This document shows, one piece after another, positions 5,744 through 64,000 of a stretch of 64,000 nt of DNA. Every line of letters begins with the position of its first letter. Within the stretch, counting starts at the first letter, position 1. The notes below the pieces were generated by a model. That model was not told the origin of the DNA. It saw only the letters and a program-made list of their open reading frames with translations, and did not search any database. This DNA is from Naegleria gruberi (taxonomy: Eukaryota), in the NCBI GenBank assembly GCA_000004985.1, contig GG738850.1; one strand, written 5' to 3'. Made by a program: the position numbers and the translations under genes.

Positions 5744-8003
5744 TTACTTTTTCTGATAGGAAAGAACATTCTTAATATTTTCAATATTACCATCTGTTAT
5801 AGTGGATGGTTTAATTTTGAGTAATTCGGCAATTAAGGAGTGAATATGAATATTTTGTATCATTTCATATGCTTTCACACCTCCTCTCTTCAATTTAGGT
5901 CCAATTCCAGTAAAGAAGGCATACATTTCATCGATATCATTTCTATAGCCATGATCACCTCTTTCATTCCACCAAGCTGAAGAATCCAATCCACTATAAT
6001 ATCCAGGGTCTGATATGAGTAAAATATCAGGAATTCTTTCATTCTTATTATAATGATATTGGGCTGGAATTTCATCTCGTTTGTAAATGGTACAATTCAA
6101 AGAATATCTCTTGACAGTTTCTTGAAGATCAGTATAGAGTTGATTAATGGTATTCCTTTTCAATACTGCATCAGTACTATTGACGAGTACATTCATATCT
6201 ACCAATGTTCCAACTGTATTACTGGTCACTACTGATTTGAAATCAACTCGATTGGTTGGTTGGGTTTCATTGTAATATTTTTCCAACATGGTTCTAATCC
6301 AAACAATTCTATCCGCGCTCAAATTAAGCATTCCATGATCTGAAACTATAAGGAAATTAACTCTCGATTTCATTCCAAGTTCATCAATCTTTTTCATAAT
6401 TCCATCAATGAAACCATCAGTAGTTTTGAGAGCATTATAAAATACAGCACTATCATTAGTGGTGCTATCATCAGTGTCTGGGACACCGTAGTAATGAGCA
6501 GCAGAATCAACCCAACTCACATAGTACATGATGAGAGATGGAGCTCCAGGGACCTTATCCCTCTTCATTTTCAAATATTGTTCAATTTTTCCAAGACGTC
6601 TCTCAAATCCACTTTCCTTAATATAGACAGGTTCGTAAAATGATGGATAAATTCCTTGAATTTTCACGTTACCTCCTGGATAATCATAGGTAGCAGTTGA
6701 AACATTTTGTTTTTCTGCAGTGATCCAAATAGGTTCTCCCTGAGACCACCAGTAAGGATCAGTCAATGTTTGTTTGAACAATTTGTTAGCAAATGGAGCA
6801 TTTCTATCATAGAAGCTATTTGAAACAAGTCCATGATTTTCCACATATTGACCTGTTGCAATACTGTAATGATTAGGGAAGGTCTTTGTTGGAAAGCAAG
6901 GTTGCATTCTACCAACGGTCACTCCCTGCTTTCGGAGCGAGGACAAGGCAGGCATGTATTTTGCAAATTTATCCACAAAGTCATATCTGAAGGCGTCTAT
7001 GGATACAAGAATAACAATTGGTTCAGGTGATGAATCAATCTATTTTTCACAAACATAATTTCATACATAATTGGAAATTTTTACATCGTTATGAAATAAA
7101 TGCACAGTCCAACAATGAAAGGTTCACAACAATTTTCCAAACATTAAAATCATCAATTATTCATTACATGTTTCATTATCAAATTGAAATACGCCAATTA
7201 TTATTATTTAACAAATTCCTTCTCTCACTAACAAAACTTACCAACAAGATGCACAAAATCAACGTTAAGAAAGCAATAGCTCCCATCAATATGAACAGCA
7301 ATGCAAGGGCCACAAACATTGCAAATGGATTACATTGTCTCACTCCCACTATAAAAGTTTGCAACTTTCCTCTCCTCTTATTCTCTTGATGATGATGATG
7401 GTGCTGCTGACGATGTGAAATACTCGATGAGGAATCATCCTCCTGACTCATCCTTGAGTAACGAGCATCAACAGCATTCGATGAGTCCAAGGCTGTTCCA
7501 CCAACCCCCGAATGACTACCCACGAGGTGTAATTCAATGGACATTTTTGAATTCTTTTTTTCTAATGAAGAATTTCCTCTTATTGAGGAAGAAGTAAATC
7601 TTCTTGAAGATGATGACGGAGTGGAAGTGAATGGAGGACAGGAGGGATTGTATTCTTCAGAGTAGTAATTGGAATTGAGGGAAGTTTGGGGTTTGAGACG
7701 AAGAGTTGTTGTTGTTGAGGAATTGTGGTTGTTACTTTGAGAATTGTTGCCTCGGAGAGATGATGAGGAAAGATTAATGGTAAATTCATTATCATCATTA
7801 TCCAATATTATTGAATTATCTATTTCATCATTCCCATTAAATTGATGATGAATTAAATTATTATTTTCCAATAATAATTCATCATCATCTTCATCATCAT
7901 GATCACTTAAATTATTAATTATCGGATCGTAATTTACTCTATCGATTGATGATAATTCTCTTCCTCCACTCCTAATGATGGATTGTAAAAAGTTGATCAT
8001 CAC
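5744..8003 (-). CDS. Ectonucleotide pyrophosphatase/phosphodiesterase (ENPP/NPP family), type II membrane protein. Exon 1 is 7242..8003 (low-complexity cytoplasmic tail plus TM), intron 7040..7241, exon 2 is 5744..7039 (catalytic domain).
   Basis: Exon 2 carries the NPP signature ...VSIDAFRYDF...CFPTKTFPNHYSIATGQY... Exon 1 ends after the TM segment FAMFVALALLFILMGAIAFLTLILCILL, followed immediately by a GTAAGT donor. An ATAG acceptor at 7040 restores the frame IDSSPEPIVILVSIDAFRYDFVDKFAKYMP in phase 0. Confidence 0.75.
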
Positions 8004-12552: not shown

Positions 12553-12615
12553 TCGGGTGTGGTAGCATTCCAGACTGTCACTCTGGCGACCCGGGTTCAA
12601 TTCCCGGCACTCGAG
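12553..12615 (+). tRNA. tRNA-Asp(GUC)-like element with truncated D-arm; probable pseudogene or tRNA-derived element.
   Basis: Acceptor TCGGGTG pairs with CACTCGA. Anticodon arm is CCAGA-CTGTCAC-TCTGG (anticodon GTC). T-arm is CCGGG-TTCAATT-CCCGG. Only 10 nt lie between acceptor and anticodon stem where about 19 are expected. A T5 run at 12621..12625 follows. Confidence 0.35.
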
Positions 12616-12975: not shown

Positions 12976-15900
12976 TTAAACACTATAACTTAACATTTCC
13001 ACTTGAGCGTTAGGATCCCCAACTACTGGAACCTCATAGACAGGACCCTTTCTTCTCTTACAACAATCCCACTTCAATTTTAATAAGACAACAATAAAAA
13101 CAAAGACTGTACATAATAAACAAGTGAAACCAAGAATTGTTCCAAGAATTATACCCAAATATCGATCTTCTGCTATTGGTGTGGAAACCTTTACAACCTT
13201 TTCAAGAATATTTTCAATAATCATAGTGCTTGTTGTAGAGTTGCATTTACAAGTTGCGGTAGAGTTGGAGCTCACCACAACAACACAGGATGGATCAACT
13301 CCAACAGTGAAATTCTTAAATGTTCTACATAATAATTCTGAAGATCTATACACTTTTGTAATTACATTTTTGTTTGATTGAGTGGATTTAGTTGTGGAAA
13401 TCAAAGAGTTGCTTGGATAATTCTTGACGTTAGATATTGTCATATTATAAGTGATTGGAGTCAATACATCTGCAGTGGATTCCAATAATTCAAAGAATAA
13501 GACATTGCTTCTAAGAAACATGGTAGAAGATATTGATGTTTCAATCTTAGATGTGTTCACAGTGATGGTGCTATCACTTAACACCACCTTAGCGGCAACA
13601 GTGTCAGAAATACCAAATATATCGTTGGAGGAAATTGAAATAAAGGAAATAGACTTTCTGTTAGATTTTTCGCTCAAGTAGAGAGGCATTTCTGGAGGCA
13701 ACAAAACAACAGCACCTTCAAGTGGTGATGTTAATCTTGATTCAAAACCTGCTCTAAAGAGCTTGTTGGATGAAATTGAAGCAAAGACTGTCTTCAATTG
13801 TAAATCTCTTTCACCAATGTAAATACCTCTCAACATTAAATTAGAAACACGTTTCAGCATTGTGTAGAGAGAACTGAGTTGGTCTGATGCTTGTAACTGA
13901 TTGTATGTAATATAATTGTAGATAGAATTCAAGATATTGGTCAATAACTTGTCAACTCCAAAAGGAACTCTAAGCTCCTTATTATATTCGCAGAATTTAA
14001 GTAAGGTGTTAACAATATCATAGGCCTTTTCCATACTATGTCCATCCAATTCATCATACTTTTCAATCAATGAATCCAAACCGTATGCTTGAAGAGTCAA
14101 GTAGGTTTCTGTAATAATTTCATATGGATTTCTAGCGTCGAATGTTTGAATAAATTCATCCATCAAGGCAACTCTGATTTCCTTATAGGCAGCAAAATCT
14201 TCCTCTGTAACACTGCAATCTGCCTTTTCAAATCCAGATGCACATGAACATCTATTGGTTTCAGTAATAAGAGTTCCTCCATTTTGACAAACGAGCTTCA
14301 CATCTCTTCTTCTTGCACCACTGGTAATCTTTGTTAGCATACCATCAGCGACTCTTGAAATTGTTGCAGAGTTGAAAACCATCTTGGCTGTATCACCATC
14401 TTTGAGTGAATTTTGAATTGTACTGTAAGAGGCAACCTTCTTTTTAACTTCCACGACACTCTTTACAGCTGCAAGATCAATGGTAATGTCCTTTTTGATT
14501 TCAGTGTAGGCACCAGTGGATTTATCTGTTATTCTAATGTATGTGGTGACGATCTTGTTAGAAAGTGGTGTGTATGAACATGGCAGCTTGGTTGAATAGA
14601 CTTCTCCGTTTTGATAAAGTGGAATATTAGCACCTGATTTGTCATCAATAAAACCATAGACCACTTGAAGGGTCTTTTGAGCGTTTTGACAATTGGTACA
14701 TGCGAATGAGAAACTAGTTTCTAAGGCAATACCTGATGAAGGAGAAACAGTGCATGGACAAGCTTGAGGTGGAGCAGCAATTTGGAAAGAGTATGAATAG
14801 ACAGCACTCAATCCATTTCTAATATCAGTTACCTTCAAGGACAAGACATAGGTAGCTCCATCTTCCAACGTTGCAGGATCAATAACAACAGAGTTGGATA
14901 GTGTTGGGCTGGAAGTCATTTTAGAGATAACTGCTTCACCATTTGAAAGTATCTTTGAATTCAAAGTCCATTCTCTGCTAATATACTGATCAATTCCAAC
15001 AGATTCTCCATTGGCAGTGACTGCAAGTTGCAAGTTAACAATATCTTGTTTCAAAATGACAGTCTTAGTTGGGACAACTGAAATAAGTGTAACGGTTGGA
15101 GGAACTTTCTTACTTTCAGGGAAAACAAAATCAAGAGTAGTTTGAACTGATCTTATTCCCTTAACAACCGAGAGGGTTAATTTAAGAGTTGGCATCGAGT
15201 TGTAAACTTTGAGGTCAGCTGAGGAAATTAAAGGTCTAACAGTTCTATCATTTGAATACGAGATAAGGGCAGAATCAATAGTTGTTCCACACCCAACATT
15301 ATTAGTTGCATCGAAGCAAGACCATGTCCATGTTTCAGCCTCAGATGTGACATCAGGATCAACAAGATTGACAACAATAGTACCCATATCGGAAGATACT
15401 TCATCACTATATAAAATTAAGCTCAAAGGGCTTGGTCTAACAGTAATCTTAATGGTGTCGGATGCAGTCGAAAGAGGATTCACCACTGAAGTTACAGTGA
15501 TTTTGAATTCATAGACGGCTTCAACCAGACCAGAAAAGTGGGTGACTGCCAAGTTGTTAAACTTGTCTGTTTCAAAAGTTGTAACTGGACCTGATAATTG
15601 TTCCCAGACAATGTTTAATTGTTGGTTTGGATAGAAGCAACTTGGAAGCTCCAAATGCTTCTTAATGACAACAGGAGATTCATACTTGATAATAGTTCTG
15701 TCATTGAAACCAATAATGTATAGCACTGGAAGTGGAACGGCTGCCTTTGAAACACTCCAAATACTCATAGTACTGACCTTTCCAGATATTGAGCTTTCTA
15801 CTTGAAGACCGAACTTGTACTCACCAGGATATTGCATTGCAATGTAATCAAGAGACAAAACTGAGGTGTTAGGCATAGAGACAGAAAGGAAATTACTTGG

Positions 15901-18900
15901 AGAAGAAACAATTGTCCAATAATATTTCAATGGCTTTCTATCTCCAGAATAAGAAGCAGAGGCATCCAGACTAAAGTTATCGCAAGTACCAATATTATTC
16001 AGACCAGAAAAGACGACAACTGGTATTGCTGGATTATCGGCATTCAAAACATATACATCTTGTAAATCAGTACCACTGGCATCAAATACCAGTCTATTCA
16101 TTCCAACAACTGCTCCTGGCATTAAGGAATAATCATCTCCAAAGAGAATTGTAAATTCACCACTACCTCTATTTGTCCACATGCATACAGGACCAGTACC
16201 AAACAAGGATAATTGGGAGCTTGAAATTAATCTTGAACAATCAACTTTTGATTGAGTATAAGAAGCAGGACCAATAACTTTGAAAACAATGCCATTAAAC
16301 ATGTCCAAGAATTTGGCAGGACCGAATATTTGAGTTGAACATTGTGAACCATAATAACCAGTTTGACACTTGTTACAATTGGATCCTTCCCAATACCCTT
16401 CAGTTGGACTAGCATAACAAGAGCATGTTCCATTATTGGTACAATCTCCATGGTTAGAACATGTTGTTGATTTTTCACAAAATGTTCCACAATCAGAATT
16501 AGGATTGTAATAGTTGGTCTTGCAAACGGAACAGAACTTTCCGTCCCAATTACCATTGCAAACACATTGGAGAGCTGAATTACAATAGCCATGTTGGTTA
16601 CAAGTAGTAGCAGGATCACACTTGAGCTTCTTACATCCTGTTAATTCAGTTTCATAGTCAAGTCTACAAACATCACAATAGGTTCCTTGCCAATAACCAT
16701 CTTGATTATTTTGATTGCAAGAACATGTGTTGTAATCTGTACAATTACCCTGTCCACTGCAGACACCAGATTGATCGAACCTAATATTATTACAAGTGTA
16801 ATATTGACAATAATCACCAGAGTATCCTGTACTGCATTGGCATCCAGTGGAACTACAAATACCCTTTCCATTACATACTCTTGAGTCTGTTGAAACAACA
16901 AATGTATTCTCCTTACTCAAACATTGAAGATATTGACATTGATTTCCAGTGACTTTAGAAAGAGCAGTTGGAGCTGGGCAATTACATACATTAGGTGATG
17001 AACAGACACCTTTTCCACTACAAACATTGGAATCATTTGCAGGCTTTCCAAAACAAACTGGAATTTCACATGTGGCTCCAATGTATCCATTATTGCAAGA
17101 GCAAGTATTTGGAGCTGTGCAGGTTCCATTTGAGCTTGAACAAACTTTTGAATTATTAGCTAAAATTCCAAAACAGATTGGAATATCACAAGTAAAGCCA
17201 GTATATCCTGAAATGCATTGGCAAGAATCTGGAGCTGAACAAATCCCTTTTCCTGAACAAACTGAACTTGAATTTGACAGAATGTCATAACATTTTTTGT
17301 GTTCACAGGCCTCTCCTGCATAACCTTGTTTGCAGGTGCAATTGTTTTGACCTACACAATAGCCATTACCTGAACAAGCTTGAGGGTTCAAGCTTGCGAT
17401 TCCGTAGCAAGTAAAAGTACCTGGAATGATAAACTCACAATTATCTCCATAAAATCCTGCGAGACAACTGCAATTATTGACAGATACACATGCACCTCTG
17501 GATGAGCAAACAGAAGAAGAATTGAACATGGTTCCATTGCAGGTATGATGTTGGCAGTCATTACCAGTGTAGTTCTTGTTGCAAGAACAAACACCAGATA
17601 GACAAATACCATTAAAGGAACAAACTGATGGATCTTCGGCTGTTTTACCATTGCATTTCACATTTTGGCAATCATTTCCGTATGTTGAGGAATTACAATT
17701 ACAAACTCCTGAAATGCATTGACCTGCATAAGAACAAACAGATGGATCTTCAGCAGTCTTTCCATTACATTTGATAAATTGACAGTCATTACCATAGTTG
17801 GAGGAAGAGCAGGTACAAGCTCCTTGATAACAAGTGCCATTGGAGGAACAAACACTTGGATCGACTGCTGTTTTTCCATTACATTTCATGAGTTGACAGT
17901 CAGATCCGTAAGTGGTGGCGTTACAGCTACATGTTCCAGAAATACATTGACCTGCATAAGAACAAACAGAGGGATCTTCAGCAGTTTTACCATTACATTT
18001 GATAAATTGGCAATCATTACCGTAGTTAGTTGAAGAACAGGTACAAACACCTGAGGAGCATGTTCCATTCGATGAACATACTGTTGCGTTTTCTGCTGTT
18101 TTTCCATTACATTTCAAGAATTGACAATCGTTACCATATGTAGTTGAATTACAATTACACACTCCAGAAATACATTGACCAGATGAGGAGCAAACAGTGG
18201 AATCATTAATCATCTTTCCATTGCACTTCAACATTTCACATTGGTTACCATAAACAGTTGAGTTTACACAGGAACAAACGTCCTGAGCAATGCAAGAACC
18301 CATTCCACTGCAAACACTTTGACTACCGGCAGAAATTCCAAAACATGTAAAGAGACTTCCTGAACAATCATTTCCAAAGAATCCTGTATTGCAAGTGCAA
18401 TTATCAGTTGAAATGCAAGAACCATGGCCAGAGCAAACTAGAGTTTCATTGCTCATGACACCACTACATTTCCAAACTTCACAATCAGATCCATAAAAAC
18501 CAGAAGAACAATTACAAGTGCCAGTTAATGCATTACAATCACCACGTGAATGACAAACTGAAGAATCATTGGCAAACTTTCCATTACACTTGGAAAACTC
18601 GCATTCATTACCGTAGAAATCAGATCTGCAAGCACAAGTGTCCAATCTGATGCAATCACCTCTGGAATTACAAACTGAAGAATCATTGGCAAGCTTTCCA
18701 AAGCAAGATGGCTTATCACAGAGAGGACCTGTCCATCCTGGCTCACATTGACACTTATCAGTGCCAACACAAGAGCCATGTACACAACCTGGATTACAAG
18801 ACAAACTACAATTTGCAGTTATGATACCATCTTCACATTGACACAAATTATTGCCAGCACAAATACCATGACCACTGCAATAATTCAAAGCGCTGCAATC

Positions 18901-20020
18901 AAATTGATCACCAACATAGAGAGACGCAGTTGTAAAAGCAGCATTTTCACAAGCATACTTGTAGGCAAGTTTTCTTCTTGGATGGGAGCAAACATTTGTT
19001 CCCTTTCCACCCATTCCATGATAGGCACCTGTTTGACTTCCACCAATACCAATGTAGGCATCAAGTTTTCCACTCTCAACACAAGAGGCATTTGAAGAGG
19101 TTACAACACCAAATCTCACTTTCAAATAATTACTATTTCCCATGTTGAATCCAATTAATTTGTTGGCACAATATTTGGCAGATGTGTAATCTGGAGCTAG
19201 AGAATAGAAATTTCTAGCAGTTCTCAAAGATCCTGGAACTACTCTGGATTGATAAGTTTCATCAGAGAACGCTTCTAACAATGACTTTTTGTTAACTGTA
19301 AAAACAGCAGTATTGGTCTTGTTAGACTCGACAATGAATCCGTCATGATCCAAAACAAAAGCTGTCTTAACTGTTGTCATTTTCAAAGAGTGAGCAACAT
19401 GTTTAGTAAAAGCCAAAGTCTTCAAATTAGTATATTGATATCCAATACTTCCAACTGTGGCGTTATTGGTCCAATATTGACTAGAATAGGAGAAGGTTGC
19501 ATCAGATCCATCCTTCAAATCCAAAGCAAGAGCCCAAGCACCTATATTTTAACACAAAGGAGCCTTGTTAAATATGAAGAAGGAATAATAACATACCCTT
19601 TGATGAAACATCAAACAAGCACTTGGTTTGATAAGTAACCTTATTGTTATTTCCATCCAAAAGGAACAAGTAGAACAAGTTTCCAGAGATACTTGACACT
19701 GACTCTCCCTTACTCAAATAATAATCTCTGATGGCACCACAACTTACAGCAGCGGTATCAGCAGAAGATCCATTAGAGACTTTCAATTTGAGTGTAGTAA
19801 AAGAATCAATCATCCACTGACCCAAATTATCGGAAGGAGAAGAAGCAGCAATTATAGAACAGTTAAATAAAACAATTAATGCAATAATGGCCATAATCAT
19901 GGAGGCGCTTAATAAATTGGAGAATGATTTCTTCAACCTATTGAAACCACCATCATCATCACAGCGTTGAACTTTGTTGCTCAAATGAGGACACGTAAAA
20001 TGTCCCCTCATTGAATTCAT
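12976..20020 (-). CDS. Very large tenascin-type EGF-repeat transmembrane surface protein, about 2330 aa. Exon 1 is 19597..20020, intron 19542..19596, exon 2 is 12976..19541.
   Basis: Exon 1 has an N-terminal hydrophobic segment MIMAIIALIVLFNCSIIAA and ends at a GTATGT donor. ATAG acceptor; G + GT gives GGT in phase. Exon 2 has roughly 30 cysteine-rich repeats of form CNGK(T/M)xxDxSVCSxxGxCxxGxCxCxxxxYGxDCQ, laminin-EGF-like modules, a long beta-rich ectodomain, a C-terminal TM (ILGTILGFTCLLCTVFVFIVVLL) and a short cytoplasmic tail. Confidence 0.75.
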
Positions 20021-20398: not shown

Positions 20399-23300
20399 AT
20401 GCAAATATCATCACGGAATGTGTTTGTTGTGGTATTGTTGGTAATTGGTTTATTGTCCAATAATGTTTATTCCTTTAATGCTTCAGTGTGCCCCACTTTC
20501 AATAGCCAAGCGTGTAATGGTGCCGCCTTATTGAATCCGTGTGCTTCTGGTGGTGAAGAAACAAATTATTGTGACTGTTTTGGATTTGGGAGTGGCGGGT
20601 TTTCAGCCTTTTATGGAGGTGTTGCATGTGAAACCTTTCAATGCTATAAAGTAGACATGCATATTGGAATTGGTCTGTACGACCAATATATTTGTTCAAA
20701 TAATGGAGATTGCATTGGACCCAATAGTTGTCAGTGTAATCAAGGTTATACTGGTTACAAATGTCAATACTCTATTGCAGATATTTCTTGTTTTAACTTA
20801 CCCGCAAATAGTTCTACTGTCTGTAGTGGAAAAGGAAAGTGTACACATCCGAATGAATGCCTTTGTAATAAGGGATATGAAGGTTTAAATTGTGAAAAGT
20901 TTAGATGTTATGGTCATTTGAACTCGGATTCGAATGCTTGTAGTGGGAAAGGAAAGTGTATAGATTGGAATGTCTGCGATTGTGACAACGGAAATTCTGG
21001 AAAAAATTGTGAACTAGTGTCCACTGTTGGTAGCTCCATTCAAAGAGTATGTTTTGGAATACCTAACACTAACAATTCGGTCTGCAATAACCGTGGTGTT
21101 TGTGTTGGACCTGATTCCTGTGTATGTAATCCAGGATATTTTGGATCTGAATGTGAACATTCCTTCTGTTTTTCTATTCCTCAAAATGACTCATCTGTTT
21201 GTAATGGCAGAGGCTTTTGTAATGAAAAAGATTCATGTAATTGCCTTTCTCAACTCTCAAATGTTCTGATTTCAGGAAGTGAATGTGAATATTTACAGTG
21301 CAAGGGAACTTTTGGCCAATACTATTTCTCTACAGATAGTACCAATGTATGCTCTGGAAATGGAATTTGCACCCTAAACGGTTGTAACTGTACTGAAGGG
21401 TACTCTGGAGAATTTTGTCAAGATTATTTCTGTGGTGGTGTCCCAAATTACAGTCCATCGTCATGCTCTGGACATGGTAACTGTATTGCTCCAGATGATT
21501 GTTCTTGCTATACTAATTCAACTCATGGTTTTTGGATAGGATCTGATTGCAGTGTTTGTGATTCATCTCACCATGGATCTGACTGTTTGTCCAGTGTCAA
21601 CTGTGACAGATATGAAACTTGTAATGGCCAGGGAAATTGCTCTTCAAATCATACATGCCTTTGTGATGATGGATTCGAGGGAGAATTCTGTGATGAATGC
21701 TCAAATGATAGATATGGTTGGGATTGTAAGCAGTTTTGTTCAAGAATTTCAAGCTGCTATGGTCACGGTGAGTGTTCCAGAGATGGCCAGGTATGTGAAT
21801 GTGATTATTCCCAAAGCACTGGTTTTTGGAAAGGAAATAATTGCTCCTCTTGTGCTGATGGTTTTTTTGGAGACGATTGTTTGACAAAGGTTGGATCAAC
21901 CTTTGAGTTTAATTCCCTAGGAAATGAGATTTACTTTGATTTGAATGGTCCTTCAACCTATCTTGGTGGTGTTGTTGATTGTTCAACCCTCTTATCCTCT
22001 TCCTCTTACTCATCTATTGGAAGTTCATTAGCTAAATGTATTTTCAAAACTCCTTTAATTCCATCAAGAATTTCTATAGAGCTTGCAAGCACATCAACTA
22101 TTAAGCCAGGCGACTCCTTGGAGGTTAATTTGAAAGTTTTTGATGCACAACATCTACCAAGATCTCTCTCCACACTCTCATGTTCAGCATCTAATATATC
22201 TTCTCCTATTGCTGAAATTGTTTACCACAACACCTTAGTGAGATATTCTGAAAATTTGGTTCTTACAGGAAGAAATAGATTAGGTATTCCTCGTGAACGC
22301 GTATTGTTCTATGAGTGGACTTTAATTTCAAGTACCTCTTCTTTTAATTCTCTTTCTAGTGTTGTGTCGTCAGGATCAGGTCTAGGAAAATCAGTTCTCA
22401 ATATTTCTAACACGGATTTACCAGATAACAATGCATTTGCAATTCAACTTAAAGTGAAACACCCAGACTTTAACTTGTGGAGTAATTATGTAATCGTTAA
22501 CTTTACAAAAGAAGATCAACCAATAGTTCAATCACCGTACAAAAAATATGAAGTGTATATATATCCTCCTTTAGACCCCTATTATGTGACAGAGTTTGTT
22601 TTTCCAATCACTGTTCCGTATCAAGTTTTGGAAGATGGTGTTCCAGTGGATACTTCTTCATTTACTGCAATTAGTTGGACATTTGATCCAGATATTCAAG
22701 CAAGTGGGCAGAGTATTTTTACAGTGGATACAACAACAAATGGTGTACTTTCTTTTGATGCAACCATTAGTGAAATGGAAAATACTATTGTCACAGTTAA
22801 ATGTGACGTTATAGAAAACAATGTTGTATTAACATCCAGTTCTTTCAAAATCAAATCTGTTGCAGAGTATAAACCTTCTCTCAAAACAAATGAGACAGAT
22901 TATGGGGTTTTCTTTAATATTGGATCTTTGAAGGGAATGCCATTACAGCAGAGCTATTGGGAATGTCACGCACCAACACAGCACCAGGGAAAATGTGAAC
23001 CTGAAATCGAGGCTTTCTTCAAAGATGCAACTAACAAGAAAAGCGTCTTTATTCCTAATGAATATTTATACAAGTACAAAGTACTTTATTATGCTCGTGT
23101 TTCAATGGTTGTTAATGGGGCTCATTATAAGGGACAAGCGGATGCTTTTGGTAAAAAGGGTTTAGAAATCTTAAAGATTGGAAATGAAGATGTAAAGCAT
23201 TATGTCTATTTGAGTAGAACGCAACAAACTAACTACATTTTGTACTATGACAACACAAGACAATCAATGACAAGCCCTCCTTCATATTCAATGTTTGATG

Positions 23301-23971
23301 AGCTTGGAAATAACATTACAGATATTCTTGTTTTGGATGCAACAAACAAACGTATTATAATCAATCCTACCGCAATACCATCTCAATCAACTTTATTAAC
23401 CTTGTCCCTTACTGACACTTATGGAAGCATGATTTATAAGAAAAACCTTCATGCATTTGTTGACATGCTCCCTAAATCAAATTGTACTGTTAAAATTGCT
23501 GAACATCCGGTTACAGTTAGTGTTTTTAATGGAATACTCTACTTTTACAATATTACAGTAGCATGTGTAACTTCTTCAAAATTGCCAACAGTTAAAGTGT
23601 ATTTGAAGAACCAAAATACCGAACTATTCGTATGTGATTTTGATCCACTATTGCTTCCAAGTCAATCTTGCTACATTCTACTTCCAGAATTGATTGGACC
23701 AACAGATGTGTTTGCCAATGTTACTCATGCAACCCAGGAATTGGTTGCCCTATTACCTGTTGCAGAAGTAAGTGAATTGATTCCTATTGGAAGTCTAAGA
23801 GAAAGACAAACAACTCCCTCAGCAGATATTGATTCTCTTCAACAAATGTTCTACCAATATTTTGCCAATCCAAGAGATGTTGAAAACACATCTATGTTAC
23901 TTCAAACTCAAATCAAAAAACTGCTCTACTTACACTACCCAGAAAAGGAGCTTTCGTATCCAAATCTCTAA
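20399..23971 (+). CDS. Secreted tenascin-type EGF-repeat protein (1190 aa), paralog of the adjacent minus-strand giant.
   Basis: Signal peptide MQISSRNVFVVVLLVIGLLSNNVYSF. EGF/laminin-EGF modules. Its CDxxHHGSDC...CDDGFEGEFCDECSNDRYGWDCKQFC...FWKGNNCSSCADGFFGDDC...GPSTYLGGVVDCSTL block parallels the CDVCRLDYE...CSVCKTNYY...YWEGSNCNKCQTGYYGSQC...GPASYTQSKVDCSRL block of the neighbour. No C-terminal TM. Confidence 0.75.
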   Translation: MQISSRNVFVVVLLVIGLLSNNVYSFNASVCPTFNSQACNGAALLNPCASGGEETNYCDCFGFGSGGFSAFYGGVACETFQCYKVDMHIGIGLYDQYICSNNGDCIGPNSCQCNQGYTGYKCQYSIADISCFNLPANSSTVCSGKGKCTHPNECLCNKGYEGLNCEKFRCYGHLNSDSNACSGKGKCIDWNVCDCDNGNSGKNCELVSTVGSSIQRVCFGIPNTNNSVCNNRGVCVGPDSCVCNPGYFGSECEHSFCFSIPQNDSSVCNGRGFCNEKDSCNCLSQLSNVLISGSECEYLQCKGTFGQYYFSTDSTNVCSGNGICTLNGCNCTEGYSGEFCQDYFCGGVPNYSPSSCSGHGNCIAPDDCSCYTNSTHGFWIGSDCSVCDSSHHGSDCLSSVNCDRYETCNGQGNCSSNHTCLCDDGFEGEFCDECSNDRYGWDCKQFCSRISSCYGHGECSRDGQVCECDYSQSTGFWKGNNCSSCADGFFGDDCLTKVGSTFEFNSLGNEIYFDLNGPSTYLGGVVDCSTLLSSSSYSSIGSSLAKCIFKTPLIPSRISIELASTSTIKPGDSLEVNLKVFDAQHLPRSLSTLSCSASNISSPIAEIVYHNTLVRYSENLVLTGRNRLGIPRERVLFYEWTLISSTSSFNSLSSVVSSGSGLGKSVLNISNTDLPDNNAFAIQLKVKHPDFNLWSNYVIVNFTKEDQPIVQSPYKKYEVYIYPPLDPYYVTEFVFPITVPYQVLEDGVPVDTSSFTAISWTFDPDIQASGQSIFTVDTTTNGVLSFDATISEMENTIVTVKCDVIENNVVLTSSSFKIKSVAEYKPSLKTNETDYGVFFNIGSLKGMPLQQSYWECHAPTQHQGKCEPEIEAFFKDATNKKSVFIPNEYLYKYKVLYYARVSMVVNGAHYKGQADAFGKKGLEILKIGNEDVKHYVYLSRTQQTNYILYYDNTRQSMTSPPSYSMFDELGNNITDILVLDATNKRIIINPTAIPSQSTLLTLSLTDTYGSMIYKKNLHAFVDMLPKSNCTVKIAEHPVTVSVFNGILYFYNITVACVTSSKLPTVKVYLKNQNTELFVCDFDPLLLPSQSCYILLPELIGPTDVFANVTHATQELVALLPVAEVSELIPIGSLRERQTTPSADIDSLQQMFYQYFANPRDVENTSMLLQTQIKKLLYLHYPEKELSYPNL

Positions 23972-55536: not shown

Positions 55537-56102
55537 TTTTTTTGTCGTATTGTAATTTTGTAAAAAAAAAACCTTTTGGCTTAATGGAGAAAATTCGGGG
55601 AATTCATTGTTGCAAATAATTCCTTATTAATATTTGGAGGTTAATTTAATAACAAAAAAATGGCGAAAAGTCAAGTCAGGAGTACATCATGCCTCTGTTG
55701 ATTCTTGGTGTAATTTCACATCTATTAACTCCAAGAATTTCACCACATCATCTCATCATGATTTAAATAATAGTATTAATAGTAATTTTTGGAATTCAAT
55801 CCTTCAATCATGATTTGAAATAATGTTATTTTTTGGAAAAATTCAAGTTGGTACATCATCATAGGAACAACCAACCATCATCATTGTTATTTATCATACA
55901 CCATTATAATAGCAATATTTGTGGAAATAAATCTGATAATAGTAATATTTTAGTGAAATTTAATATTTTCACTAAAATCATCACAGCCAATCTTCTTAAA
56001 CATTAAACTTTTGTCCATTCCATAAACATTCGGAATGAATTCAACATCTTTTCCCTTAAAACCAGCTAATTTTACAATCTTCATTAAGGAACCTTAAAAA
56101 AA

Positions 56103-57386
56103 ATGAGATTCGTCAGAGAGCGTCTTGAAGTCGTTACCTGTTACATTCCTTTCAATGGTGAGGCGGTTGGTGATAACACTTCTCAAAGTTTACAGAAGAC
56201 TCCTGGTAAGAACCATTATCCATCCAATGCTTGCTTTAACGTTTTTTGGTATCAACAACCAACATGGACACCACCTTTCTGCAAGTATCTAATAGAATAT
56301 TATGATACTCTCAAATCATTACCAAGTGCTTCGGAAGGTGCTAGTGCTGTTGTTAGATTAAGTTCCACGAGGCAAACTGGTAACAACTCTTTTGTTCGAA
56401 GTTCAGGCTCTGGATTTTACCTTCTTCCCAACACAATTATTACAACTAGTCATGTTGAAGCTGAACTTGAGAGAATTGGTGGTAAAATAACTGCATTCAG
56501 CAATGCATGGAACAATAGCAATTCAACAATTTTGCCTACCAGGATCAGAACCTTGCATTCTGGGAAAACTATCAAAGATTCCCAATTGGGTAATTTATTT
56601 CCGGTCACTTATAGTTGGGTTGGAAGAGATCCTATCACTACCAAAGTAGGAGACTTTGATTACTTTGATGTCACCGCAATGGACTTTACTACTGGTTCTC
56701 TTGGTAATAAGGTTTTTTTCATTCCTTCTCCAAGAATTTTGCAACCTAATGATGAAATTATTTCTCTTTCTTATCCAGGAGACAAGCATCAACAACCTCC
56801 TTATTCTAGTAGCCTTACTTATGTTGATTGGGCTCCAAGTGAATCCTTTTTGAAGGACAATATCTTTAATGGCTACGGAAAGTTATGTGCAAGTGTTGGG
56901 ACGATTATGCACCCATACAAATTGTCAGAAAATGGATTTGTAGAAAAAGATGAAAACTTTCGTTACGATTCGTCTAATCAAGAATGTTTGGCAAGCTCTG
57001 AATGCTTAATATATGGAAGTTCTGGTGGTGTTATGATTTCAAAATTCTCACAAGTGTATCAAATTGGAGAGTATACATTAGTTGAGTTTAATGCTATCCA
57101 CACTGGTGGAGAGTTTGTTCGATGTTCAGATTGTTTGAAAGAAAGTTCATCTGCTTACATAATTTCTCCACCAGATTCTTGGAGATTGTGTGGAACTTGT
57201 GTTAATAATGTAAACATTTCTTTCAATAATGCAATTACATACTCTACAAGTATTTCAGTTCATTCAAAGCCATTTGTTGAATTTTATTCAAGTGTTATTC
57301 TTCCACAACTTTGTAAACTTCCACTCACAACAATTCCTGATTCACTTATTGAATACTGTCAAATGCATCAAATTAATATCAAATAA
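56103..57386 (+). CDS. Trypsin-like (chymotrypsin-fold) serine peptidase domain protein.
   Basis: His region NTIITTSHV. Candidate Asp DFDYFDVTAMDF. Ser region IYGSSGGVMIS (GDSGG-like). Confidence 0.5.
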   Translation: MRFVRERLEVVTCYIPFNGEAVGDNTSQSLQKTPGKNHYPSNACFNVFWYQQPTWTPPFCKYLIEYYDTLKSLPSASEGASAVVRLSSTRQTGNNSFVRSSGSGFYLLPNTIITTSHVEAELERIGGKITAFSNAWNNSNSTILPTRIRTLHSGKTIKDSQLGNLFPVTYSWVGRDPITTKVGDFDYFDVTAMDFTTGSLGNKVFFIPSPRILQPNDEIISLSYPGDKHQQPPYSSSLTYVDWAPSESFLKDNIFNGYGKLCASVGTIMHPYKLSENGFVEKDENFRYDSSNQECLASSECLIYGSSGGVMISKFSQVYQIGEYTLVEFNAIHTGGEFVRCSDCLKESSSAYIISPPDSWRLCGTCVNNVNISFNNAITYSTSISVHSKPFVEFYSSVILPQLCKLPLTTIPDSLIEYCQMHQINIK

Positions 57387-57545: not shown

Positions 57546-58145
57546 CTACATTTTGGAAAGGTCTCTTTCGAATACTCTTTCGCATAACATTCTTCCATTA
57601 AATCTGCTCACTCTATTAGTTTGATAGGTGAGATAATTTCTCGAATCTCTCAATTCGAAACCATTATTTCCCAACAATTCCCACAAGGCATGAGTACTAT
57701 CAGTCATGGCATAAGGAACTGCATACGAATCATCAGTTTGACTCATATCCCTCGCCCAAATCAAATTTAATTCGAAATCTTCAAAGACAACTTGAGCAAT
57801 TTGTTGACCTTCCAAATATTCTGAATTATTTGGATAAGAAACTCCAAATAATTCCTTAAAAACTGATGGAGCAATTCTTAATGCTTGGAAAACATCTTTT
57901 GGTCCAATAATTTCTCTCACATTAATGTACTGTTTCGTTGACTTTTTTGCCTGAATCTTATTGACCTTTCCTCCAATCACTGGAATGGAAACTGGATCTT
58001 GAATCATTGGAGAGAATGATCCAGGAGGTGGTGGAGTGCCTCCTCCTACTTTGAAAGAACTGTTTATTCCAGGAGGTGGTGGTGGAGTAAATCCTTGAGA
58101 AGTACTAATATTGCTATTATTGCTTGGTGGAGGTGGTGGAGGCAT
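57546..58145 (-). CDS. Hypothetical protein with proline-rich N-terminus (PPPPPPS...PPPPPG...PPPPG).
   Basis: 199-aa ORF; C-terminal ~130 aa non-repetitive. Confidence 0.45.
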   Translation of the reverse strand: MPPPPPPSNNSNISTSQGFTPPPPPGINSSFKVGGGTPPPPGSFSPMIQDPVSIPVIGGKVNKIQAKKSTKQYINVREIIGPKDVFQALRIAPSVFKELFGVSYPNNSEYLEGQQIAQVVFEDFELNLIWARDMSQTDDSYAVPYAMTDSTHALWELLGNNGFELRDSRNYLTYQTNRVSRFNGRMLCERVFERDLSKM

Positions 58146-62202: not shown

Positions 62203-62382
62203 ATTATTTCTTCTTTCGTGGTCTACCAGGCTTTCTCTTTACTGCTTCTTCAACTTGAGATTTCATTGGTTCTTTGAATTGTGATTTCTTTGGTCTACCA
62301 CGTTTCTTTTTCTTTAATGGTTCCTCTTCTTGTTCCAATTCTTTCTCTTGTTCCAATTCCTTCTCTTGTTCTTGATCATAAT
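62203..62382 (-). CDS. AT-hook protein, C-terminal fragment; the remainder lies in the assembly gap.
   Basis: Minus-strand translation is ...YDQEQEKELEQEKELEQEEEPLKKKKRGRPKKSQFKEPMKSQVEEAVKRKPGRPRKKK*, with two RGRP AT-hook cores. Confidence 0.5.
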
Positions 62383-63004
62383 NNNNNNNNNNNNNNNNNN
62401 NNNNNNNNNNNNNNNNNNNNNNNNNNNNNNNNNNNNNNNNNNNNNNNNNNNNNNNNNNNNNNNNNNNNNNNNNNNNNNNNNNNNNNNNNNNNNNNNNNNN
62501 NNNNNNNNNNNNNNNNNNNNNNNNNNNNNNNNNNNNNNNNNNNNNNNNNNNNNNNNNNNNNNNNNNNNNNNNNNNNNNNNNNNNNNNNNNNNNNNNNNNN
62601 NNNNNNNNNNNNNNNNNNNNNNNNNNNNNNNNNNNNNNNNNNNNNNNNNNNNNNNNNNNNNNNNNNNNNNNNNNNNNNNNNNNNNNNNNNNNNNNNNNNN
62701 NNNNNNNNNNNNNNNNNNNNNNNNNNNNNNNNNNNNNNNNNNNNNNNNNNNNNNNNNNNNNNNNNNNNNNNNNNNNNNNNNNNNNNNNNNNNNNNNNNNN
62801 NNNNNNNNNNNNNNNNNNNNNNNNNNNNNNNNNNNNNNNNNNNNNNNNNNNNNNNNNNNNNNNNNNNNNNNNNNNNNNNNNNNNNNNNNNNNNNNNNNNN
62901 NNNNNNNNNNNNNNNNNNNNNNNNNNNNNNNNNNNNNNNNNNNNNNNNNNNNNNNNNNNNNNNNNNNNNNNNNNNNNNNNNNNNNNNNNNNNNNNNNNNN
63001 NNNN
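62383..63004. other. Assembly gap (622 N).
   Basis: Run of n characters. Confidence 1.
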
Positions 63005-63462
63005 AATATGCTTCAGATTGAACTTTCCTGTTTCTCGGTTGCACTTTAGGTTTGGAAATACATACTCTTTGATTATTCAATGAAAAACTACTTAACCATT
63101 CATTATGATATCTTACAAACTTGTTCTATACATTTAGGAGGAGCTACCCTGAAAGGATGACATCTTTAAATCAAATATTCATCGAACTATAAGGCACAGG
63201 TTTGAAAGACAAATATTGAAAGTTAGAAAAACGAGTAAAAATGAAAATTTTATAATTTAAAATCGGGGAACAGACCAAATGATGGATAACGAACGTTGTT
63301 CCTCCTTGATCGACTAAGTAATTATCGAGAAGGAAGGTTTCTAAATATTTGCAAAATTTCATTCACATCCTTCAATAATAATTTTCAAACCGAAAAATTT
63401 AAAAATAGAATGGATTAATATCAATAATTTTGGAGATGTGGATTATTATCTAGTATTTTAAT

Positions 63463-63499
63463 GATGGAAGTGGAGGTGCCATAGGCACCCACTTCCATC
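63463..63499. repeat. Subtelomeric 37-bp near-perfect palindrome/hairpin GATGGAAGTGGAGGTGCCATAGGCACCCACTTCCATC.
   Basis: Arms GATGGAAGTGG(A)GGTGCC and GGCACCCACTTCCATC are reverse complements apart from a 1-nt bulge; loop is ATA. Confidence 0.6.
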
Positions 63500-63604
63500 A
63501 AGTGGAGAAACTACATTGAAGGAGGATCTGTTAAAAAAAATACAAGAACATCATGCCTCCTTCATCTTCAAGTATTGCTCCTTCTTCGTCATCTATATCA
63601 TCAA

Positions 63605-64000
63605 TTAGGGTTTGGGTTGGGTTTGGGTTTGGGTTTGGGTTTGGGTTTGGGTTTGGGTTTGGGTTTGGGTTTGGGTTTGGGTTTGGGTTTGGGTTTGGGT
63701 TTGGGTTTGGGTTTGGGTTTGGGTTTGGGTTTGGGTTTGGGTTTGGGTTTGGGTTTGGGTTTGGGTTTGGGTTTGGGTTTGGGTTTGGGTTTGGGTTTGG
63801 GTTTGGGTTTGGGTTTGGGTTTGGGTTTGGGTTTGGGTTTGGGTTTGGGTTTGGGTTTGGGTTTGGGTTTGGGTTTGGGTTTGGGTTTGGGTTTGGGTTT
63901 GGGTTTGGGTTTGGGTTTGGGTTTGGGTTTGGGTTGGGTTTGGGTTTGGGTTTGGGTTTGGGTTTGGGTTTGGGTTTGGGTTTGGGTTTGGGTTTGGGTT
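63605..64000 (+). repeat. Telomeric repeat array (TTTGGG)n. First unit is TTAGGG, with two TTGGG variants. The G-rich strand runs 5'->3' to the window end, so this is a right chromosome end.
   Basis: About 65 tandem 6-mers from 63605 to the last base. Confidence 0.85.

Follow-up and report, generated by a model that had tools for sequence, protein, structure and literature searches.

TTAGGG is taken as the likely ancestral type of eukaryotic telomere repeat; it occurs, for example, in the trypanosomatids, the other well-studied group of Discoba. Few free-living Discoba have a sequenced genome, and Naegleria is among them. TTTGGG is an uncommon telomere unit, without the A of the ancestral hexamer. 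In Paramecium, which uses the ciliate genetic code, telomerase also adds TTTGGG hexamers to the macronuclear and micronuclear telomeres. There they occur together with TTGGGG, a mixture that arises on a single telomerase RNA when the enzyme misincorporates or stutters.

The system closest to the one described here is that of Naegleria gruberi itself. In a search for terminal minisatellites in 143 genome assemblies, TTTGGG emerged as the in silico candidate for the telomere repeat of N. gruberi, judged by where its arrays lie in the assembly and how they are oriented (Fulneckova et al. 2013, Genome Biol Evol 5:468; PMC3622300). The species was classed among the genomes with a convincing terminal pattern; the evidence was in silico only, and the authors stated that experimental confirmation is required and that the end of an assembly is not proof of a physical end (PMC3622300). 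In the literature searched, nothing later on the telomeres, TERT or telomerase RNA of Naegleria was found.

The window analysed here is a stretch of 64,000 nucleotides from an N. gruberi scaffold, with a TTTGGG array at its end. Organism, assembly source, motif and type of evidence are all the same as in the published candidate and nothing essential differs. The core finding, a TTTGGG telomere of N. gruberi, is thus already known, because the repeat was published as a candidate in 2013. The relevance of the Naegleria telomere type to the reconstruction of telomere and telomerase-template evolution was also pointed out in that year. What the window adds is the anatomy of one end, that is, 66 units including two of TTGGG, a TTAGGG junction, a 600-bp flank, a hairpin and an assembly gap. 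The features are as follows.

62204..62382, minus strand: 3′ end of the last recognisable ORF, AT-hook-like (...GRPKK...GRPRKKK, then stop), running upstream into the gap
62383..63004, no strand: scaffold gap of 622 N between the telomere-bearing contig and the rest of the scaffold
63005..63604, no strand: unique, apparently non-coding subtelomeric DNA (GC 31.7%), whose left border is a contig edge and not a biological boundary
63462..63500, no strand: GC-rich near-perfect palindrome of 39 nt, with a 12-bp stem, a bulge, a 5-bp stem and an ATA loop
63517..63564, no strand: weak inverted repeat with a 9-bp stem (arms 63517..63525 and 63556..63564) and a 30-nt loop
63605..64000, plus strand: telomeric repeat array, defined by unit parsing and TRF, with the motif published for N. 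gruberi
63605..63610, plus strand: junction hexamer TTAGGG, either a proximal variant unit or TTA of the flank with the first GGG of the array
63617..63621, plus strand: short unit TTGGG, one T fewer (unit parsing)
63934..63938, plus strand: short unit TTGGG, one T fewer (unit parsing)

By unit parsing, the array at 63605..64000 consists of one TTAGGG, 63 TTTGGG and two TTGGG, 66 units in total, and the trailing TT forms the final bases of the window. The array measures 396 bp, with 95% perfect units. TRF delimits the array at 63608..64000 with a period of 6, 65.8 copies, 98% matches and a score of 772. The G-rich strand is the plus strand and reads 5′ to 3′ toward the end of the window, whose last base is still inside the array; 396 bp is a lower bound for the length of the telomere. 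An earlier note on this DNA had described a TTTGGG array running to the last base with its G-strand outward and containing two TTGGG units, and all of this was confirmed by direct reading, unit parsing and TRF, the short units lying at 63617 and 63934. In the remaining 63.6 kb of this one window there are no dimers of TTTGGG, CCCAAA, TTAGGG, TTTAGGG or TTGGGG outside the array.

The array shares with canonical TTAGGG telomeres (e.g., those of trypanosomatids within Discoba) the hexameric, T/G-rich unit ending in GGG, the orientation and presumably the telomerase mechanism, but the A in the third position is replaced by T in all units except the one at the junction. Similarly, it shares the hexamer with Paramecium and differs in its composition, since TTGGGG units are absent (0/66) and the interspersion of TTGGGG and TTTGGG typical of Paramecium is not seen. 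The window is also read in the standard code: its longest ORF has 2182 codons. It contains low-complexity runs rich in N/Q/S, and its GC content is 31-38%. Three of its proteins are identical to N. gruberi NEG-M EFC48818.1, EFC48817.1 and EFC48685.1 (707,703-bp contig). Ciliate contamination was considered as a source of this DNA and rejected, given the missing TTGGGG units, the long standard-code ORFs and the exact N. gruberi proteins of the window.

Metagenome contigs were scanned for (TTTGGG)6, which was found in at least 120 contigs. Among the matches listed, short internal microsatellites make up most of these arrays, and the contigs that hold them are often GC-rich; the motif alone is therefore not diagnostic. 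However, among the same matches the contig-terminal arrays were oriented outward in 25 cases versus inward in nine (one-sided binomial p = 0.0045). Together with the outward-capped ends of the metagenome assembly JAESGV01, this means that TTTGGG serves as a chromosome cap in nature.

In JAESGV01, at least 13 contig ends (of L008, L030, L032, L043, L055, L078, L079, L083, L084, L085, L103, L116 and L121) are capped by outward TTTGGG, with 174 of about 196 units being pure TTTGGG. The capped contigs are AT-rich and gene-dense, with ORFs of up to 1254 codons in the standard genetic code, and consequently do not belong to Paramecium-type ciliates. These ends resemble the window end in that nearly pure outward TTTGGG sits on unique DNA that is gene-dense, rich in AT and in the standard code, without a shared subtelomeric repeat. 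They differ in having no DNA similarity to the window, occasional TTGGGG units and no strong hairpin near the arrays. On sequence grounds, their source appears to be a protist with Naegleria-type telomeres that is not a close relative of Naegleria; among the JAESGV01 ends retrieved, none was found to carry a universal marker gene. In one of the contigs, L085, a Ty3/gypsy Pol lies 86 bp from the array, and two PPR-DYW proteins are encoded as well. A JAESGV01 PPR-DYW protein has no close relative in Naegleria; among named sequences it is most similar to plant PPRs, at 22-24% identity. Contigs ending in outward TTTGGG were also seen in other, unrelated metagenomes. For instance, LUMJ01000369.1 (L065; array at 5-68) is very gene-dense and encodes a class II tRNA synthetase and the large subunit of DNA primase, VFQO010000557.1 (L077; 13314-13361) encodes a heavy-metal P-type ATPase, and three further cases are L010, L096 and L107.

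The junctions of the JAESGV01 arrays bear on the reading of the first hexamer at the N. gruberi end. At the 13 ends among the matches listed, each array adjoins a different unique flank and typically starts after arbitrary bases with GGG (acaGGG, catGGG, gtaGGG, ataGGG, tgaGGG). By analogy, the caaTTA+GGG at the junction in the window may be read as unique flank to which the first GGG of the array is joined. The earlier note had singled out TTAGGG as the first unit. The hexamer is indeed present at 63605 on the plus strand, but with comparable junctions in JAESGV01 its status as a meaningful variant is unsupported. With one hexamer at one end, flank plus GGG, a true variant repeat and the healing of a break at GGG are indistinguishable, and a single TTAGGG in this place is no evidence of ancestry.

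The array abuts approximately 600 bp of unique, apparently non-coding sequence; the genome is gene-dense and AT-rich and uses the standard code. The telomere-bearing contig is only 996 bp long (600 bp unique and 396 bp of array) and is tied to the scaffold through scaffolding alone, across a gap of 622 N that the earlier note did not record. Position 63005 is the first base past this gap, and the "600-bp unit" begins there because the contig begins there. Compared with the rest of the window, the 600-bp piece gives chance-level matches only; it is single-copy and shows no tblastx similarity. In the comparison with 26 other TTTGGG-capped ends among the metagenome matches listed, no similarity to the flank was found either. 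The subtelomeric unit of 600 bp that had been proposed is thus not upheld, its left edge being the assembly gap and its sequence being single-copy in the window and unlike the other TTTGGG-capped ends. A small coding gene within the piece was also considered and dismissed, as the longest ORF has 63 aa, is absent from the protein collection and shows no tblastx similarity.

On the other side of the gap lies the AT-hook-like ORF, in which EQEKEL repeats encoded by an 18-bp tandem repeat at 62328-62371 precede GRPKK...GRPRKKK and the stop. Its 5′ part is missing, cut off by the gap. No homologue of a gap-spanning AT-hook-like peptide was found in the protein collection, so the gap is not bridged in this way. 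Exact-protein look-ups with five proteins of the window and one paralogue gave two contigs of about 2 kb from run ERR1078381, both distant from this end. If the scaffold join is right, the end of the last gene is about 1.4 kb from the array.

Based on general telomere biology, the tract would be extended by a telomerase whose RNA template carries a permutation of CCCAAA, for example CCCAAACCC. Capping proteins would then bind the tract, so that the end is protected and replicated, and the G3T3 runs would have G-quadruplex potential. The two TTGGG units could represent occasional slippage on the template, or Sanger base-calling errors. A telomerase with a CCCAAA-type template and some slippage, as the earlier note had suggested, is plausible. 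In the window, which is a tiny part of the genome and says nothing either way, no CCCAAA-permuted strings of at least 9 nt occur outside coding ORFs; the few 9-10-mers of such a permutation are all inside long coding ORFs.

The array is very probably a genuine telomere of one N. gruberi NEG-M chromosome end. The claim of a chromosome-end telomere with a TTTGGG unit is accordingly supported, TTTGGG being the published candidate repeat of the species, and the main residual doubts concern the scaffold join and the physical terminality, which is supported in silico only. The first of these doubts gives rise to the foremost alternative, in which the telomere is genuine for N. gruberi but the 996-bp contig was scaffolded wrongly and caps a chromosome end other than the one carrying the genes of the window. 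The gap of 622 N between contig and scaffold, bridged by no independent contig or protein, and the lack of shared sequence between the piece and the rest of the window speak for such a misplacement. The orientation of the piece is nevertheless that of a telomere, since the array lies distally rather than beside the gap; the composition of the piece is like that of the scaffold (GC 31.7% vs. 34.3%), and its flank is single-copy as far as seen, which makes a mate-pair placement reliable. A wrong join is considered unlikely. The second doubt concerns the possibility that no physical end is present, and that an interstitial (TTTGGG)n microsatellite or interstitial telomeric sequence marks the point where the Sanger assembly broke. 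Assemblers do halt in long simple repeats, among the metagenome matches listed about three quarters of the (TTTGGG)≥6 arrays are internal, and terminality has been deduced in silico only (PMC3622300). On the contrary, internal arrays reach at most 138 bp among the matches listed, compared with 396 bp here, although short-read assemblies compress repeats. The array also consists to 95% of perfect units, its G-strand points outward, no second copy exists in 63.6 kb, and N. gruberi belongs to the class with a convincing terminal pattern (PMC3622300). On balance, an interstitial origin is improbable.

Two further explanations were weighed and found more remote still. A true telomere might persist without a telomerase if the ends recombine or copy one another in an ALT-like manner, and the literature search did not find any Naegleria telomerase component. 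In known telomerase-independent systems, however, the units are usually long or complex, and a very homogeneous short G/T repeat with variants of a single nucleotide in length only is the signature of templated synthesis; maintenance of this kind is very improbable here. It is hardly credible, finally, that the piece is a contaminant from another organism with TTTGGG in its telomeres, for instance the JAESGV01 protist or a ciliate resembling Paramecium. The piece is short, gene-free and joined by scaffolding only, and other TTTGGG-capped organisms do exist. NEG-M, however, is an axenic strain. Paramecium mixes TTGGGG with TTTGGG and the array at hand is without TTGGGG; no similarity to any JAESGV01 end was seen among the matches listed, and TTTGGG was the pattern that the published survey found at the ends in the N. 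gruberi assembly itself (PMC3622300).

As a telomere of N. gruberi, the array has practical value as an anchor in the search for the Naegleria telomerase RNA, the template of which is expected to contain a sequence like CCCAAACCC, and in the validation of chromosome-scale assemblies. To this the window adds a caution, as the end is joined across an assembly gap, and a strong palindrome which is worth checking at other ends.

This palindrome, TGATGGAAGTGG-AG-GTGCC-ATA-GGCAC-CCACTTCCATCA, had been described as 37 bp long at 63463..63499. It is real and extends one base wider on each side, to 63462..63500, so that its distal edge is 104 bp proximal to the array. It comprises a perfect outer stem of 12 bp, a bulge of 1-2 nt, an inner stem of 5 bp (GGTGC/GCACC) and a loop of 3 nt. 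Folded as single-stranded DNA it reaches a dG of -17.2 kcal/mol (z = -7.7), which was equalled by 0 of 200 shuffles, and a stem of at least 12 bp occurs in 0.5% of the shuffles of the 600-bp piece. In sliding folds of 50 nt no other structure in the window is as strong; the runner-up of 207 interior blocks reaches -11.9 and the median is -5.7 kcal/mol. The palindrome is thus exceptional and far beyond chance.

Its proposed role as a boundary or recombination element at the subtelomere is unsupported, as the structure was seen once. There are no further copies of the hairpin within the window, and an exact search of the metagenome contigs with its core gave 0 matches. Among the matches listed, 18 other ends capped by TTTGGG hold no counterpart in their last 300 bp, which fold at -2.3 to -9.6 kcal/mol, like the interiors of their contigs. 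The Rfam search of 63005..63625 gave a best score of 25.1 bits versus a gathering score of 42, with nothing credible at permissive thresholds as well. The hairpin is most likely a locus-specific feature with no demonstrated role at the telomere, and it is doubtful that it is a recurrent element of Naegleria chromosome ends. If it were recurrent, it would be found at most ends, beside very short and otherwise unique subtelomeres with genes within about 1.5 kb of the telomere, and it could then mark a boundary of replication or transcription, or give a signal which positions telomere addition.

The second inverted motif, at 63517..63564, had been proposed as an element of the same kind. This proposal is not sustained, since a 9-bp stem of its kind is found in 19% of the shuffles and the motif is therefore at the level of chance.

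Three other hairpins with perfect stems of 12-13 bp are located at 7843-7887, 55947-55978 and 57823-57854. They are AT-rich and weaker (dG -8.7 to -11.8 kcal/mol), two being inside long ORFs and one between divergent ORFs. About 0.25 hairpins with stems of at least 12 bp were expected from dinucleotide shuffles of the 62 kb, versus these three observed.

Across the whole window, the Rfam matches are to tRNA only. One of them, at 12553-12615 on the plus strand (43 bits over 63 nt), was not called by ARAGORN and could be a tRNA of unusual or degenerate form. Immediately upstream of it is the 2182-codon ORF. This ORF (12976-19524, minus strand) and the one at 20399-23971 (plus strand) are divergent and encode products of 2182 and 1190 aa, respectively, with cysteine-rich repeats that look EGF-like by eye.

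The ORF at 56103-57386 on the plus strand corresponds to EFC48685.1. Its first 162 residues only are copied, at 91% identity, in EFC37902.1 (191 aa), which is encoded on a separate N. gruberi scaffold (236,320 bp) and may be a truncated duplicate common to chromosome regions. In the metagenome run ERR1078381 (PRJEB11402; contigs L001 and L002), a contig protein is 100% identical over 492 aa to the alanine aminotransferase of N. gruberi, and therefore N. gruberi or a near-identical strain was present in that sample.
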